Shown here in pieces: positions 8,482-19,135 of a stretch of 24,339 nt of DNA. Position numbers and translations under genes: made by a program. The stretch spans positions 1 through 24,339 of the forward strand of contig PFHO01000019.1 of assembly GCA_002782345.1 (NCBI GenBank), written 5' to 3'. The DNA comes from Candidatus Moranbacteria bacterium CG_4_8_14_3_um_filter_34_16. GTDB lineage: Bacteria; Patescibacteriota; Minisyncoccia; Moranbacterales; UBA2206. Numbering within the stretch: the first letter of the stretch is position 1; each line of letters starts with the position of its first letter. The notes beneath the pieces are model-generated. The model worked only from the letters and a program-made list of their open reading frames with translations, was not told the origin of the DNA and ran no database searches.

Positions 8482-8621
8482 AAAAAAATAAGAGCGGTAA
8501 TACTAATGCATATGGCGGATGCCTAGACATCAAAAAGCGATGAAGGACGTAGCTAGTTGCGAAAAGCTTCGGGGAGGTGCTGAGCAACCTTTGATCCGAA
8601 GATATCCAAATGGGGCAACCC

Positions 8622-8809
8622 AACCCATTCTTCACTTCGTTCAGAATGTAATTTCTAATTTTCAATTTACAATTTTCAAATAAATTCTAATCTCAAATTT
8701 TTAGAAATTGAAACATTGAGAATTATTTATAAAATTAAAAATTTTAAATTAAAAAATTTGTAAAGTTTATTTTAATGGCAAAATTTCTGGATAAAGTGAA
8801 GAATGGGTT
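8622..8809 (+). other. Insert/expansion in 23S helix 9 (188 nt versus ~18 nt in E. coli)
   Basis: Perfect 16-bp basal stem AACCCATTCTTCACTT / AAGTGAAGAATGGGTT, lying between GGGGCAACCC and ATATTAACTGAATTCATAGG; AT-rich heptamer core. Confidence 0.93.
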
Positions 8810-8933
8810 AATATTAACTGAATTCATAGGTTAATATAGCGTACCCGGCGAATTGAAACATCTTAGTAGCCGGAGAAAAAGAAAACTAATGTGATTCCCT
8901 AAGTAGTGGCGAGCGAAAGGGGAAAAGTCTAAA

Positions 8934-9113
8934 CCAGCTTCACCTCACTGCGTTCGGTGAAGAATTCTAGATTTTAAATTCTAAATTTTAAATCAAATCT
9001 AAATTTTCAAATGATTGAATTTTAAAAATTTGTTCATTTGGTCATTGAAAATTCGTTTAAAATTGAAAATTTAAAATTGAAAATTCTGTCCGAGCATAGC
9101 GAGGTGCAGCTGG
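8934..9113 (+). other. Insert/expansion at ~E. coli nt 270 (H15/H16 region), 180 nt
   Basis: CCAGCTTCACCTCACTGCGTTCGG / CCGAGCATAGCGAGGTGCAGCTGG stem between AAACC and GGGGTTGCGAGG; AT-rich heptamer core. Confidence 0.9.
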
Positions 9114-9413
9114 GGTTGCGAGGTAATTTTACTCGTTTAATCGGGGCGATGAATTGTTTGTTAGCAGAACGTTTTGGAAAAAACGACCAAAGAAAGTGAA
9201 AGTCTTGTAAGCGAAAACAAACAACATTCGTGAAATTATTCTCAAGTAGGGCGGGACCGGAGAAATCCCGTTTGAATCTGGGGTCACTATAACTCCAAGA
9301 CTAAATATTTTTGATGATCGATAGCGAACAAGTACCGTGAGGGAAAGGTGAAAAGTATCCCGATGAGGGAGATGAAATAGTATCTGAAACCATATGCTAA
9401 CGAAGAGTAGGAG

Positions 9414-9576
9414 CCGTATTTTTCACTAACGTCCAGAATAAATTTTTAATTTCCAATTTTTAATTTTATAAATAATTTTTAATGTTTTGATTTTATAAAC
9501 ATTAGAAATTAGAAAATTATTTAAAAATTGTAAAAATTAAAAATTATAAAATTCGGAGCGTAAGTGAAGAATACGG
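9414..9576 (+). other. Insert/expansion in 23S helix 25, 163 nt
   Basis: CCGTATTTTTCACT / AGTGAAGAATACGG stem between GTAGGAG and TGACTGCGTGCTTTTTGTA. Confidence 0.93.
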
Positions 9577-10191
9577 TGACTGCGTGCTTTTTGTAGAACG
9601 ATCCAGCGAGTTAGTTTTATACGGCTTGCTTAATCCGTTAATAGCGGAGGAGGCGTAGTGAAAGCGAGCCTTAACCGGCGATTTGTCGTATGGACTAGAC
9701 CCGAAGCCAGGCGAGCTATTTATGAGCAGGGTGAATCTTGAGTAACATCAAGAGGAGGCCCGAACCCACCGGCCGTGCAACACCGGGGGATGACTTGTGA
9801 ATAGAGGAGAAATTCCAATCGAGCTTGGCGATAGCTGGTTCTTCCCGAAATAGCTTGAGGGCTAGCGTTAGGTAACTATCTGTCGGAGGTAGAGCGACTG
9901 AATGAGAATTCGCGGTTCGCCGTAGGTTTCTCAACCAAACTCCGAATTCCGTCAGAACTATCCTAGCAGTCAGAAATCCGGGGCTAAGCTCGGATCTCAA
10001 AAGGGGAAAAGCCCATGATCGCAATCTAAGGTCCCTAATTTATGTTAAGTGGAAAAGGAAGTAAGATTTCTTATACAGCTAGGAGGTTGGCTCAGAGGCA
10101 GCCATCCTTTAAAGAGTGCGTAATAGCTCACTAGTCTAGAGATTTCGCGCCGAAAATGTAACGGGGCTAAAACATAATACCGAAGATGCGG

Positions 10192-10362
10192 GCTACTATT
10201 CTTCACTAACGTTCAGAATGAAATTTTAAAGACTAAATTTAAAATTTTAAATCAAGTCTAAATGAATAAATTTTTAAAATTTAAACATTGGGAAATTTAA
10301 AATTCAATTAAAATTTATAATTTAAAATTGAAAATTTCCGAGCGATAGCGAAGGATGGTAGC
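10192..10362 (+). other. Insert/expansion in 23S helix 45, 171 nt
   Basis: GCTACTATTCTTCACT / AGCGAAGGATGGTAGC stem between CCGAAGATGCGG and GGTAGGGAAGCGTTC. Confidence 0.93.
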
Positions 10363-10881
10363 GGTAGGGAAGCGTTCCATATGCGCTGAAGCGGAATGCG
10401 TGAGCAACCGTGGAGTTTATGGAAGTGAGAATGCTGGAATTAGTAACCGCAATTGGGGTGAGAACCCCCGACACCGAAAGTCTAAGGTTTCCTGGGCAAT
10501 GGCAATCATCTCAGGGTTAGTCGGGCCTAAGGCGAGGCCGAAAGGCGTAGTCGATGGACACACGGTTAATACTCCGTGGCTTTCACGTTATTCGATGGAG
10601 TGACGCATCCTAGTAGTTCTTGCCAATTATTGGATTTTGGTAGGGATATTTAGATGGCGAGACAGGTAAATCCGTTTCGCAATACATCAAGATATTTCTC
10701 TAATTTGTCTTCGGACAGAAAAGAAGAATGAGCAGGGTGCCGGGAAAAGCTTCTAAGATTAGTAGCGTGAGAACCGTACTAAAACCGACACAGGTAGACT
10801 GGGCGAGTAGCCTAAGGTGAACGAGTGAACCTTCGTTAAGGAACTCGGCAAAATAGCGTCCGTAACTTAGGAATAAGGACT

Positions 10882-10967
10882 GCCCGCCGTGTATAGCACA
10901 GAGATTCTAAATTTCAGAAAAATAATTAAAATATAAATTTGGAATTCCCGTGCTATGCGTGGTGGGC
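10882..10967 (+). other. Extended 23S helix 63 with a short AT-rich tip (86 nt)
   Basis: GCCCGCCGTGTATAGCAC / GTGCTATGCGTGGTGGGC stem capped by GATTCTAAATTT...AAATTTGGAATT (about 10903-10947). Confidence 0.8.
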
Positions 10968-11416
10968 CGCAGCTAAAGATATCAAGCGACTGTTTACCAA
11001 AAACACAGGTCTCTGCAAACCCGCAAGGGGATGTATAGGGGCTGACGCCTGACCAGTGCTGGAACGTTAACGGGAGCGGTGCAAGCCAATCCCCGAAGCG
11101 CCAGTGAACGTCAGCGATAACTATAATCGTTCTAAGGTAGCGAAATTCCTTGACAGGTAAGTTCTGTCCCGCATCAAAGGCGTAACGACTTGATAACTGT
11201 CTTAACGAAGAGCTCGGTGAAATTGCAATGACGGTAAAGATGCCGTCGACCTGCAGCAAGACGAAAAGACCCCGTGGAGCTTTACTACAACTTGGTATTG
11301 AGTTTGAGATTATACTGCCTAGAATAGGTGGGAGGCTTTGAAGTTCGTCTTTTGGGATGAACTGAGCCAATAGTGTAATACCACTCTGGATAGTTTTAAA
11401 TTCTAACCCTGGACCG

Positions 11417-11558
11417 TTAAAAGGCAAAAAATTTTCAATTTTCAATTCACGATTTTAAAACAATTTCTAATGATTAAATTTTTTAATTTTAAAATCATTT
11501 AGAAATTGAAAATTGTTTAGAAATTGAAAATTAAAAATTAGAAATTTTTGTTTTTTAC
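11417..11558 (+). other. Insert/expansion in 23S helix 79, ~142 nt
   Basis: Lies within the CCCTGGACCG / CGGTTCGGGG stem preceding GACAGTGCCTGGTGGGTAGTTTGACTGGGG; clearest heptamer array (AATTTTC repeats ... TTAGAAA/TTGAAAA repeats). Confidence 0.93.
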
Positions 11559-11580
11559 CGGTTCGGGGACAGTGCCTGGT

Positions 11581-11626
<46 letters not shown>

Positions 11627-11774
11627 TTTACAAAGGTAGGCTAGGTCCGGATGGAAATCGGGCTGGTAGTGCAAACGCGCAAGCCTGCTTTACTGCGAGA
11701 CTCATAAGTCAATCAGTCACGAAAGTGGAAGTTAGTGAACCGACCATCGCTTATAGGAGCGTGGAAGATCATCA

Positions 11775-11807
<33 letters not shown>

Positions 11808-11832
11808 CCTCCCAAGAGTTCACATCGACGGA

Positions 11833-11893
<61 letters not shown>

Positions 11894-12134
11894 TGGCTGT
11901 TCGCCAATTAAAGTGGTACGCGAGCTGGGTTCAAACCGTCGTGAGACAGGTTGGTCTCCTATCTGCTGTAGGCGTTTATTGCTTGAGAGGATTCTTTCCT
12001 AGTACGAGAGGACCGGAAAGAACAAACCTCTGGTGTACCAGCTGTGGCGCCAGCCGCATTGCTGGGTAGCTAAGTTTGGAAGGGATAACCGCTGAAAGCA
12101 TATAAGCGGGAAGCCCACCTCAAGATTAGGCAAT

Positions 12135-12307
12135 GTCGTGCGAAGCGCGAAAATCCCAATAACCAAAAAACAATAACCAAACAAATTACAATAACTGAAA
12201 TTCAAAATTTCAAACATAATTAAAAAAGTTTGAGATTTGAAAATTGGAATTTGAAATTTATTTGGAATTTGTATCTTGTAATTTGGAATTTACGTGCTTT
12301 GTGCGGC
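12135..12307 (+). other. Insert/expansion in 23S helix 98, 173 nt
   Basis: GTCGTGCGAAGCGCG / CGTGCTTTGTGCGGC stem between CTCAAGATTAGG and CTGGAAGATTACCAGGTTGATAGG; TTGGAAT-type heptamer array at 12230-12289. Confidence 0.92.
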
Positions 12308-12420
12308 TGATTTCCTGGAAGATTACCAGGTTGATAGGTCTCAGGTATAAGCGAAGTGATTCGTTGAGCCAAGAGATACTAATAAATCAAACTTTATCTC
12401 TCTTATTTTTCTCGTTTAGT

Positions 12421-12691: not shown

Positions 12692-12857
12692 GTTTCCGGT
12701 GCTTCTAGCGGTGAGGAAACACGCGATCCCATTCCGAACTCGTTCGTTAAGCTTGCCAGCCCCGATGGTAGCCCGCTCAAATTTTTTAAAATGTTTAGAG
12801 AGATTTCCAAGATTTTGAAGAATTTGAGCGGGTAAGAGTAGGACAGTGCCGGGAACA
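12692..12857 (+). rRNA. rrf: 5S rRNA gene with enlarged helix IV (~165 nt)
   Basis: CCGGT..TAGCGGTGAGGAAACACGCGATCCCATTCCGAACTCG..GTTAAG..CCGATGGTAG ... AAGAGTAGGACAGTGCCGG. Helix I pairing between 12687-12699 and 12849-12861. Ends approximate. Confidence 0.95.
12771..12833 (+). other. Expanded 5S helix IV/loop D (63 nt versus ~19 nt in E. coli)
   Basis: GCCCGCTCAAATTTTTTAAAAT / ATTTTGAAGAATTTGAGCGGGT stem, sitting between GATGGTA and AAGAGTAGG. Confidence 0.92.
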
Positions 12858-13210
12858 ATGCATTCAATTTTTTCTTAAAAAGAGTTGAAAAGTCAAAAAC
12901 TTTTTTGTCTTTTTATTTTTTCAAAATCTGATATCATTTTTTTGTTTTACGAAAACATTTTTCGGGATGTGAAAACATTTTTCATTTTGCTTTTCGCGTT
13001 AAGCATATAAAATCAAGGAGTTATTTGTTTGGTGAAAAATTATTGGAGGATGATTGAGGAAGTTGAAATTAAATTTTCATAATTTTTTGAAAAATTTTTA
13101 AGTATTATAATCTTGAGTGTTGTTTTAATTTATTTTTCTTACAATTTTTATATACAGAATATGTTTGTATTTATTGAATCATTTTTTTTAAAAAAGATTT
13201 AAAACTTTTT

Positions 13211-15616: not shown

Positions 15617-15618
15617 TA

Positions 15619-15704
15619 AATTTTCAATTTTTAAATAATTTTAAATTTTTTTAAATTAAAATTTGAATCATTGGAAATTGTTTGAAAATTAAAAATTGAA
15701 AATT
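15619..15704. repeat. Palindromic heptamer-repeat element, same family as the rRNA insert cores
   Basis: Perfect 16-bp inverted repeat AATTTTCAATTTTTAA / TTAAAAATTGAAAATT. Right arm TTGGAAA-TTGT-TTGAAAA-TTAAAAA-TTGAAAA parallels the H79 insert. Confidence 0.85.
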
Positions 15705-17212: not shown

Positions 17213-19135
17213 ATGAAACCGGCAATTTTTTTGCGAAGAGAAAAAGAACAAAATAAGAAAAAAAATTTTTGCGGACGAAAAAAATGTTCTGGCGAAGAAA
17301 GCGGTTTTAACATGCGTCTTTTTGCGTTAATTTTTTTTGTTTTTGCGATAGCGGGAATTATATTTTTTCGTCTTTATGATTTGCAAGTTTTTGCTAGAGA
17401 TTATTATATCGGTTTGGCGGACAATCAACATTACATATTGAAAAATATTTTTCCCAAAAGAGGGGAAATTTTTTTCAAAGATAAAAATAGAAACCAGTCA
17501 TCTTTTCCCGCAGCGATTAACAAAAAATCGCAATTGGTTTATGCGGTTCCTTACGAAGTGGAAAATCTTGTTGGGTCAATAAAAGAAATTGCGCAAAATT
17601 TGTCAATGGAAGAAAATGAGATAAGGGAGAAAATGAAAAATAAAAAGAGTATGTATAGCGTGATAAAAAAAAGAATTTCGCAAGAAGAAGCGGAAAAAAT
17701 AGAAAATATGAAAATGAAAGGAATTTATCTGGCGGAAGATATTTTCCGTTATTATCCAGCAGAAGATTTGGCTTCCAATGTATTGGGATTTGTCGGTTGG
17801 AAAGAAAATTCACTGGAGGGAAGATACGGGATTGAATCTTATTTTGAAGATAAATTAAGAGGAACACAGGGAAAAATTTCTCACAAAAAAGACAATTCCG
17901 GCAGTTGGATTCCTTTTGAAGATAAAGAAATAACCTTAGCTCAAGATGGCGATGATTTGTTTTTAACGATAGATCATATTATCCAGTATGAAACGGAAAA
18001 AATTTTGGCGGGAGCGGTTGAAAAATTTGGAGCGGAAAGAGGTTTGGTTATAGTTATGAATCCCAAAAACGGTCAAATTATTTCTTTAGCCAATTATCCT
18101 TCTTTCAATCCCAACGAATACGGCAAAGTTGAAAATATGGAAAATTTCAAAAATTTGGTGGGAGAAGCTTATGAATGCGGAAGTGTTTTTAAAGGTATAA
18201 CTTTAGCGTCGGCTATTGACAACGGAAAGATAAATCCGGAAACTACTTATGTTGATACTGGAACAGTCAATATCTCCGGATATAATATCAAAAATTCCGA
18301 TTTGAAAGCTTATGGATTGCAGACAATGACGCAAGTTTTAGAAAAATCTCTCAATACCGGTTCCATCTATGCGGAAAAAGTTTTAGGCAACAAGAATTTT
18401 TCCGATTATATAAAAAGATTTGGTTTTGGAGAAAAAACCGGGCTGGAACTTCCGGGAGAAAATTCCGGCAACTTGTCAAATTTGGAGAATCTCAAAAAAG
18501 ATATTCAGTTTTTTACCGCTTCTTTTGGGCAAGGGACAACAGTTACTCCCATTCAACTTATTTCGGCTTACAGTGCTATTGCTAATGGAGGAATGCTTTT
18601 TAAACCTCAAATAGTAGAAAAAATTTCTCATAAGAACGGAACGGAGGAACCGTTGCAACCGCAAGAAATAAGAAAAGTTATTTCACAAAATACCGCCAAT
18701 CAAATTTCTCAAATGTTGCAAAGCGTAGTTGAAAAGGGGCATGGAAAAAGAGCCGGAGTGCCGGGATATAAAGTGGCGGGAAAAACCGGGACAGCTCAGG
18801 TGGCGAGCGGAACTCAAAAAGGTTATGAAGAAGGAGCAAGTATTGGAAGTTTTGTCGGATTTGCTCCGGTTGACAATCCGCAATTTTCAATTTTGGTGCG
18901 TTTAGATAATCCGAAAAATGTTGAATGGGCGGAATCTAGCGCGGCTCCGGTTTTTGGCGAATTGATGAAATTTCTGTTAAGCTATGAAAACATTGAACCA
19001 ACGGAAAAATATGTTCAAAACGATTTGGACAATTTTGAAAAATTGCATGATTTGAAAAAATATTTTGCCGAATTTGAAAAAGAAAAGAAAAAAGAAGAAA
19101 AGAAAAAAGAAGATAATCAAAATAAGGAAAATTAA
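17213..19135 (+). CDS. ftsI: Class B penicillin-binding protein (FtsI/PBP2-like transpeptidase)
   Basis: TM anchor, PKRGEIF, RYYP, LEGRYGIESYF, LTID; active-site motifs GSVFK (SxxK), SLN (SxN) and KTG; dcw context. Confidence 0.92.
   Translation: MKPAIFLRREKEQNKKKNFCGRKKCSGEESGFNMRLFALIFFVFAIAGIIFFRLYDLQVFARDYYIGLADNQHYILKNIFPKRGEIFFKDKNRNQSSFPAAINKKSQLVYAVPYEVENLVGSIKEIAQNLSMEENEIREKMKNKKSMYSVIKKRISQEEAEKIENMKMKGIYLAEDIFRYYPAEDLASNVLGFVGWKENSLEGRYGIESYFEDKLRGTQGKISHKKDNSGSWIPFEDKEITLAQDGDDLFLTIDHIIQYETEKILAGAVEKFGAERGLVIVMNPKNGQIISLANYPSFNPNEYGKVENMENFKNLVGEAYECGSVFKGITLASAIDNGKINPETTYVDTGTVNISGYNIKNSDLKAYGLQTMTQVLEKSLNTGSIYAEKVLGNKNFSDYIKRFGFGEKTGLELPGENSGNLSNLENLKKDIQFFTASFGQGTTVTPIQLISAYSAIANGGMLFKPQIVEKISHKNGTEEPLQPQEIRKVISQNTANQISQMLQSVVEKGHGKRAGVPGYKVAGKTGTAQVASGTQKGYEEGASIGSFVGFAPVDNPQFSILVRLDNPKNVEWAESSAAPVFGELMKFLLSYENIEPTEKYVQNDLDNFEKLHDLKKYFAEFEKEKKKEEKKKEDNQNKEN

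Follow-up and report, generated by a model that had tools for sequence, protein, structure and literature searches.

The question raised by this locus is why a 23S ribosomal RNA (rRNA) gene should carry several AT-rich hairpins at non-homologous helices, and why four of them should begin and end with the same short palindromes. The window, that is, the whole stretch of DNA analysed here (24,339 nt), is contig C24 of a genome (G000) of 819 kb in 76 contigs with 33.6% G+C; the genomes of its relatives measure 0.6-1.5 Mb. From the small genome, the unlinked single rRNA genes and the insert-rich rRNAs we infer that the host is a bacterium of the candidate phyla radiation (CPR)/Patescibacteria kind. 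We found that the four hairpin inserts in helices H9, H15/16, H25 and H45 of the 23S gene, together with one insert in the 16S gene, probably form one family without open reading frames (ORFs), which is composite in build and mobile, and whose excision from the transcript we infer.

The 23S rRNA gene (8493-12403, plus strand) was recovered over its full length by Rfam model RF02541 at 2363 bits, and Rfam also located the 5S rRNA 3' of it. It measures 3911 nt against the 2925 positions of the model, and this excess of about 1 kb is due to seven AT-rich hairpin inserts. Mapping against the 23S sequences of Escherichia coli and 19 relatives placed them at E. coli positions ~140 (H9), ~279-300 (H15/16), ~544 (H25), ~1180 (H45), ~1738 (H63), ~2213 (H79) and ~2794-2802 (H98). 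With two more in the 16S and one in the 5S rRNA gene, the genome holds ten rRNA inserts, and five of these, the four named above and one in 16S, have arms of 21-22 nt in common. No group I or group II intron was matched by covariance models, as only the large-subunit and 5S rRNAs rose above the Rfam gathering thresholds in the window. The inserts lie at variable helix tips, as expected of intervening sequences (IVSs), at the classical sites H9, H25 and H45 and in addition at ~279-300. Their distribution is patchy, and the nearest 23S relatives are without them.

The initial annotation, made from the letters alone, had described inverted terminal arms of ~18 nt on the four 23S inserts. The arms that it quoted are present in the sequence as written, but the shared unit is longer, namely 21-22 nt, and each single arm is a full small palindrome, consisting of a 5-bp outer stem, TC in the left or GA in the right arm, 2 bp, a loop of 3-4 nt and the mirror image of these. 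All of the arms are given on the plus strand. The left arm of H9 (8627-8647) has the pyrimidine version, ATTCT-TC-AC-TTC-GT-TC-AGAAT, and the same 21-mer occurs in non-rRNA doublets of relatives; its right arm (8784-8804) is a degenerate purine version that pairs with the left one at 19 of 21 positions. In H45 the left arm (10198-10219) is a 22-mer found unchanged in two helices of the relative G011, and the right arm (10335-10356) reads TTTCC-GA-GC-GATA-GC-GA-AGGAT. The left arm of H25 (9418-9439) is a variant with a 4-nt loop, opposed by a right arm at 9551-9572. The H15/16 arms (8940-8960 and 9087-9107) are the most divergent among the four inserts, with the outer stem of the left arm covaried to TCACC/GGTGA. 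The fifth member of the family, the first 16S insert (G000:C70, ~17985-18125), has arms resembling those of the four, which we term family A. Each insert is thus a composite, in which two inverted palindromic arms of 21-22 nt clamp an AT-rich palindrome of 110-140 nt.

Arm conservation was followed over 29 rRNA composites from this genome and its relatives, a count that includes a few inserts read from both strands. The outer stem covaries among them (ATTCT/AGAAT, TCACC/GGTGA, GTGCT/AGCAC, GTGTC/GACAC) around an inner TC-AC...GT-TC that never varies. In the four inserts the two arms pair with each other at 16-19 of 21-22 positions; over the composites, arm-to-arm pairing reaches 90% of positions and 99% in the basal 5 bp, and the outer stem also pairs with itself in 93% (left) and 80% (right). 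Because the arms are palindromic, they can pair either with each other, which gives a rod, or with themselves. Conservation is highest in the left arm (mean identity 0.76); the core and the right arm reach 0.62. The work was done by pattern, BLAST and pair counts in scripts. The arm pattern, ATTCTTCACTN{1,2}CGTTCAGAAT with at most 3 mismatches, has four matches in the 23S gene (three left arms on the plus strand, one right arm on the minus strand), the H15/16 arms being too divergent for it. Only one of 1000 dinucleotide shuffles had any match, so that the arm similarity survives the shuffled-sequence control that the initial annotation had proposed as a way to refute it, and the reversed pattern had no match in this genome. 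Within this genome the arms are confined to rRNA genes, with four copies in 23S and one in 16S.

The AT-rich cores, likewise on the plus strand, lie at 8648-8783 in H9 (an AT-rich palindrome with 87% A+T), 8961-9086 in H15/16 (78% identical to the H45 core), 9440-9550 in H25 (93% A+T) and 10222-10336 in H45. The last of these is a copy of a palindromic repeat of ~115 nt that is dispersed, armless, in intergenic DNA. Dispersal was counted in a set of 319 genomes of the same order, and a BLAST search with the H45 insert found its core alone in 168 of them at 75-86% identity; the ends of these copies are fixed (AATTTTAAAG...AAAATTGAAAATT), and a genome has several of them. All 25 core-only loci that were examined lie outside rRNA genes and all 25 are armless, while all 12 loci with both arm and core lie within 23S genes, one of them combining the same core with arms of a second family. 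Since the core-only copies outside rRNA are armless and the arm-plus-core copies are in 23S, the unit moving inside rRNA is the composite, and outside rRNA the core moves alone. A free-standing armless copy of the core type is present in the window itself at 15619-15704 (no strand assigned), in the intergenic spacer 15617-15695. We also noted further armless core-like copies elsewhere in the genome, at C13:7453-7553, C41:7521-7594, C44:8464-8561 and C74:4758-4812.

The common origin that the initial annotation proposed is borne out by the homology of whole inserts, including copies at different helices. In the relative G018 the H25 insert is identical to the H58 insert over 192 nt; in G011 the H15/16 and H9 inserts agree at 98% over 143 nt; and in G008 the H15/16 and H25 inserts, which have a third arm type, agree at 95%. 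The H45 insert of our genome is 92% identical to the H15/16 insert and 94% identical to the H9 insert of G011, which belongs to another genus, although, over the columns homologous to E. coli, the 23S genes of the two genomes agree at only 83%. At the same helix, the H45 insert of G284 is 92% identical to ours, and our H25 insert with its arms matches the H9 insert of G018 at 85% over 133 nt. The further copies that were sought in the genome and its relatives were therefore found, as a 16S member here and as inserts and units in the relatives. The copied unit terminates at the outer edge of the arms. The composite thus behaves as a unit that has been copied into non-homologous rRNA helix tips and between genera. 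Target-site duplications, for which the initial annotation had proposed to look, are absent from the junctions of all five sets of near-identical copies.

The arms themselves are not peculiar to rRNA genes in the relatives. They are identical or nearly identical to the palindrome core of a dispersed repeat, GTCATTCTGAGCGNAGCGAAGAATC, and the arm pattern occurs in 129 of the 319 genomes, far above the reversed control and with up to 20 copies per genome, most of the exact matches being outside rRNA genes. The initial annotation had likened the arms to a widespread GTCATTCTGAGCG...GAATC palindrome, and this repeat is real, as the exact 25-mer GTCATTCTGAGCGNAGCGAAGAATC was found in at least 120 stretches of public genomes from Nitrospirota, Chloroflexota, Acidobacteriota, Bacteroidota isolates, Planctomycetota, Verrucomicrobiota, Firmicutes, Proteobacteria and CPR lineages. 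For an intergenic repeat, such conservation over very distant phyla, cultured Mucilaginibacter and Pedobacter included, is remarkable. Outside rRNA genes the unit reads GTCATTCTGAGCGNAGCGAAGAATC-YCG and stands alone or as a doublet, in which the purine version, a short spacer and the pyrimidine version follow each other with GTCAT facing outward, and identical arm 21-mers are found in such doublets of the relatives. Among pairs at most 80 nt apart this usual order was seen 34 times and the inverse order twice; in the rRNA inserts the order is without exception the inverse one, running from the pyrimidine to the purine version. The idea that the inserts hold the two halves of the repeat turned inside out is thus right about the order and wrong about the halves, because an arm corresponds to the whole palindrome core. 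As in the class of Ssn-related motifs (SRM/NTS), a hairpin palindrome of 20-50 nt is repeated, and the unit folds into 5 bp, GA, 2 bp and a loop. The dispersed copies of the relatives have the oriented flank of that class, with GTC ahead of the palindrome and C behind it; in each of the four rRNA inserts it is missing or degenerate. The degenerate search pattern published for SRMs, which matches the Neisseria NTS, matched neither the canonical unit nor any of the four arms compared with it (H9 and H45 left, H45 and H25 right), and a full-text literature search for the unit as a string returned no paper.

This kinship leads to a class of small nucleases. Researchers have found that NTS/SRM hairpins (CGTCATTCCCGCG...GGGAATCYRG) bracket ssnA, which encodes a 94-aa GIY-YIG enzyme that binds the hairpin as single-stranded DNA only, cuts a few nt upstream of it and is inactive on RNA, and that the Neisseria enzyme requires a GTC preceding the palindrome and a C following it (PMC11893778, Nat Commun 2025). 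In the relatives, several small GIY-YIG genes are likewise bracketed by GTCAT hairpins. One of them, at G304:C70, encodes a protein that belongs to Pfam family PF01541, had no match in an NCBIfam search and is bracketed by the GTCATTCTGAGCGNAGCGAAGAATC unit. Its homologs occur in 134 of the 319 genomes, although its clade was not found in ours. Among its close homologs (at least 61% identity), the unit lies no farther than 90 nt from the gene in 7 of 12, flanking 4 of these on both sides, while none of 18 distant homologs has it and about half of these are accompanied by other GTCAT hairpin types; a Gracilibacteria genome shows the unit and an Ssn-like gene in the same arrangement. Because the unit flanks 7 of the 12 close and none of the 18 distant homologs, the arm is the predicted cognate hairpin of one Ssn-like clade. 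Our genome has just two GIY-YIG ORFs, one of 69 aa on C61 and one of 459 aa, which from its size we take to be uvrC. The 69-aa ORF (G000:C61:331-459) matches no more than the N-terminal half of the GIY-YIG domain and may be a decayed Ssn-like gene. As a separate observation, small GIY-YIG genes of the CPR-like relatives G211 (contig C2) and G011 (contig C25) are bracketed by hairpins of the Neisseria NTS consensus (GTCATTCCCGCGCAGGCGGGAATCCA).

How the arms came to be shared, and what moved them, can be explained in several ways. If the likeness reflected convergent processing signals or conversion within the gene, with no mobile element involved, the restriction of this genome's arms to rRNA genes and the higher conservation of the left arm than of the core would both be expected. 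However, the identical 21-mers in the relatives' non-rRNA repeats flank nuclease genes, inserts that are 92-100% identical stand at non-homologous helices or across genera in 23S genes of 83% identity, and gene conversion requires homologous flanks, which different helices do not have; this reading is already largely refuted, and we regard it as the least probable of all. The initial annotation had favoured a family like miniature inverted-repeat transposable elements (MITEs) or repetitive extragenic palindromes (REPs), and of this the existence of mobile copies holds, but free-living MITE ends do not, the core being armless outside rRNA, and a link to RAYT transposases was not seen. A classical cut-and-paste MITE, with the arms as terminal inverted repeats for a DDE transposase, would account for small, ORF-less, multicopy units with such ends, but the lack of target-site duplications at any of the compared junctions, the armless cores outside rRNA and the absence of a recurrent gene near the public unit copies make it very unlikely, and we rejected a DDE-type MITE for want of the duplications. 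Around these 120 copies no gene family stood at more than 3 loci, and an Ssn-like neighbour was detected at 1 of the 120 (tblastn, one query). We consider it just as improbable that a REP/REPIN-type element is moved by a RAYT/IS200-like Y1 (HUH) transposase. This would suit palindromic units in inverted doublets and the missing target-site duplications, which REPINs lack as well, and Y1_Tnp genes are present in 162 of the 319 genomes and in 4 of 5 unit-rich ones. But a presence of 51% is no clear association, our genome has no Y1_Tnp gene, the unit flanked none of 5 Y1 genes examined in relatives, and the demonstrable gene partner of the unit is the GIY-YIG protein instead; RAYT/IS200 was accordingly rejected as mobiliser.

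Among the mobilisers that the initial annotation had listed, the GIY-YIG nucleases are tied to the unit in the relatives, where it brackets genes of one clade, and no such tie was seen for the HUH/RAYT and four-helix-bundle genes. For the latter (23S_rRNA_IVP) there were only two weak matches outside rRNA genes, and no arms stood at the truncated one. That truncated ORF (G000:C23:2033-2483, minus strand; 23S rRNA IVS protein, TIGR02436) has inverted repeats of the AATTTTC heptamer, of the insert-core type, on its flanks and resembles a free-standing IVS-like cassette. An Ssn-type GIY-YIG nuclease might itself make the breaks in single-stranded DNA through which the composite is admitted to hairpin tips in the rRNA genes, which are heavily transcribed. 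The arms are the predicted cognate hairpin of one such clade, and as the published enzyme cuts a few nt upstream, the inside-out order would turn both cleavage sites toward the AT-rich core. Yet two requirements of the Neisseria enzyme, the GTC and the trailing C, are missing from the rRNA arms, composite-bearing genomes are without the cognate clade, and Ssn is not known to have transposition activity, so we hold this to be rather improbable. In a broader form, in which the composite is a structure-targeting mobile element that enters the tips of hairpin-coding DNA specifically and without target-site duplication, driven by an Ssn-type GIY-YIG nuclease or by another partner, the proposal gains slightly but is still speculative and on balance unlikely. 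If it were true, many bacterial rRNA intervening sequences would stem from hairpin repeats of the Ssn/SRM class.

What happens to the inserts in the transcript is a separate matter. In minimum-free-energy folds, all four prolong the host helix into a long rod (z-scores between -5.1 and -9.0). For 8 of the 10 rRNA inserts of this genome (total over its inserts -459 vs -383 kcal/mol) and for 47 of 55 inserts of the relatives, the sense strand gives a more stable fold than the antisense strand, and G-U pairs are frequent in the arm duplex. The RNA-level pairing that the initial annotation read from G-U and compensatory differences between the copies is upheld by these strand counts and by the 90% arm pairing. 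This bias indicates that the inserts evolve under selection for pairing of the transcribed strand, as would fit either a processing substrate or a retained rod. An RNase III gene is encoded at G000:C28:3243-3635 (PF14622, 132.7 bits) in a 234-aa open frame. Researchers have reported that RNase III excises the classical IVSs of helices H9, H25 and H45 by cutting in the stem formed by their terminal repeats (PMC11270868; PMC4990558), that this stem comprises 28 bp in the Coxiella IVS (PMC4990558), and that CPR inserts which are short, lack ORFs and lie at these sites are regarded as presumptive IVSs and RNase III substrates (PMC11270868). Because the enzyme is encoded, the classical IVSs are excised and the CPR survey calls such inserts probable IVSs, we lean, by a modest degree, toward excision of the inserts as intervening sequences. 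During folding of the precursor, each insert would form a rod of ~70 bp with the arms as a duplex of ~22 bp at its base. RNase III would cut at the arm duplex and remove the rod, and the 23S rRNA would be left fragmented but functional, as with the classical intervening sequences. A role in clamping the weak A-U rod, in directing its removal, or in both may be what maintains the arms in the rRNA copies.

The rods could also be expansion segments, kept after maturation of the rRNA and projecting from the surface of the ribosome as those of eukaryotes do. All insert sites are tips of surface helices that carry expansion segments in eukaryotes, selection on sense-strand pairing fits a retained structure equally well, and ten excisions would fragment the rRNAs heavily. 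Nevertheless, a long, nearly perfect double-stranded RNA is a standard substrate of the encoded RNase III, the bacterial inserts known from H9, H25 and H45 undergo excision, and an A+T content of 87-93% is unlike a stable structural rRNA, so retention seems to us the less probable fate, though one to be taken seriously. Several observations weigh against the interpretation that we prefer, that of a mobile composite excised from the transcript. Excision of all ten inserts would leave the rRNAs in about a dozen pieces, which to our knowledge is more than in any known bacterium. The public RNA runs shared at most 0.24 of the sampled words, and these were conserved rRNA words of other organisms, none of the runs containing the sequence of this one. 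The H79 insert has the same type of core without arms, so the arms are not strictly required in rRNA, and that composites are seen in rRNA alone could reflect selection on the survivors and not a function of the arms. The genomes that bear composites (G000, G011 and G284) are without the cognate nuclease clade. Finally, these are metagenome-assembled genomes, in which repeats can in principle be misjoined, although the same architecture recurs in many independent assemblies.

The remaining rRNA inserts differ from the four in their arms. The H63 insert (10888-10960, plus strand) is a rod of the same kind with arms of a second family, B (CGTGTATAGCACAG... type), and arms of this second family are also found on the H98 insert (12136-12306, plus strand) and on the second 16S insert (G000:C70, ~18805-18985). 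They are seemingly confined to rRNA and do not form a dispersed repeat. The H79 insert (11420-11562, plus strand) is the AT-rich rod without palindromic arms mentioned above. The 16S gene (G000:C70:17487-19354) measures 1868 nt, is unlinked from the 23S gene and holds two AT-rich hairpin inserts. In the 5S rRNA (12695-12860) we noted a hairpin extension of ~50 nt in the middle of the gene (~12778-12830), which has arms of another type or none, and the full 5S model of Rfam aligned to the 5' part alone (12695-12778). The inserts contain 10 promoter-like sites against an expectation of 9.5, which is no enrichment. The third arm family, TCGCCACACCAATCATC... with a perfect inverted repeat of 17 bp, was seen at H15/16, H25 and H45 of the G008 23S gene, and other relatives have inserts of ~260-330 nt at E. 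coli position 2593 that start with TAGCTTT-type heptamer repeats.

The origin of intervening sequences has been an open question since 1990, with remnants of transposition as one guess (quoted in PMC4990558). Our results offer a concrete lead, namely arms from a repeat partnered with Ssn-like GIY-YIG nucleases and a core from a repeat dispersed in the order, and the composite is still moving, as recent copies in more than one helix and more than one genus show. They also supply a defined substrate together with candidate enzymes, explain part of the insert-laden rRNA genes of small-genome, CPR-like bacteria, and draw attention to mobile inserts that can mislead rRNA-based phylogeny and assembly.

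REP and REPIN families consist of short palindromic units that often form inverted doublets and make no target-site duplication. The present family is like them in its short palindromic units, in the inverted doublets able to form long hairpins and in the absence of target-site duplication, but it differs in that no RAYT accompanies the unit, the doublet order is inverted in rRNA and a foreign core of 115 nt stands between the units. The palindromic elements of Rickettsia and similar repeats, which enter functional genes and structured RNAs, are like the present inserts selfish palindromes tolerated inside essential genes at permissive surface positions; here, in contrast, the host is rRNA, the element is composite and one gene holds several copies. 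The inserts are also like the IVSs of bacterial 23S genes (Salmonella, Leptospira and Coxiella at H45/H25, alphaproteobacteria at H9), which occupy the same sites, have complementary termini with a stem of at least 20 bp under a stem-loop, are sporadic with signs of horizontal transfer, and are found in reduced genomes that have one rRNA copy. Unlike those, the inserts here number ten per rRNA set including 16S and 5S, contain no ORF and are candidates for excision; they are also modular, with borrowed palindromic arms and a dispersed AT-rich repeat, and occur as identical copies at different helices. With the NTS/SRM and SsnA system, the dispersed unit shares a GTCAT-prefixed hairpin palindrome ending in GAATC-Y-G that brackets small GIY-YIG genes with GTCAT outward, a hairpin type that covaries with the nuclease clade, and a presence in many phyla (PMC11893778), whereas the rRNA arms are only the palindrome core, stand in the opposite order in a genome without the nuclease and are unmatched by the SRM pattern. 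The inserts also resemble the rRNA 'insertion sequences' of CPR bacteria (Tsurumaki et al. 2024, PMC11270868), which are ORF-less, are not introns, are shorter than 200 bp and lie at 23S IVS sites. That survey found no 5S inserts at its threshold of at least 100 bp and describes neither shared arms nor palindromes nor dispersed relatives; 'palindrom' and 'inverted repeat' appear nowhere in its text. Thus, the hairpin class of IVSs at variable helices was already known, and short ORF-less CPR rRNA inserts were catalogued though uncharacterised; what appears to be new is the modular build, the Ssn-class arms in inverted order, the confinement of the composites to rRNA genes, and the recent copying from helix to helix.

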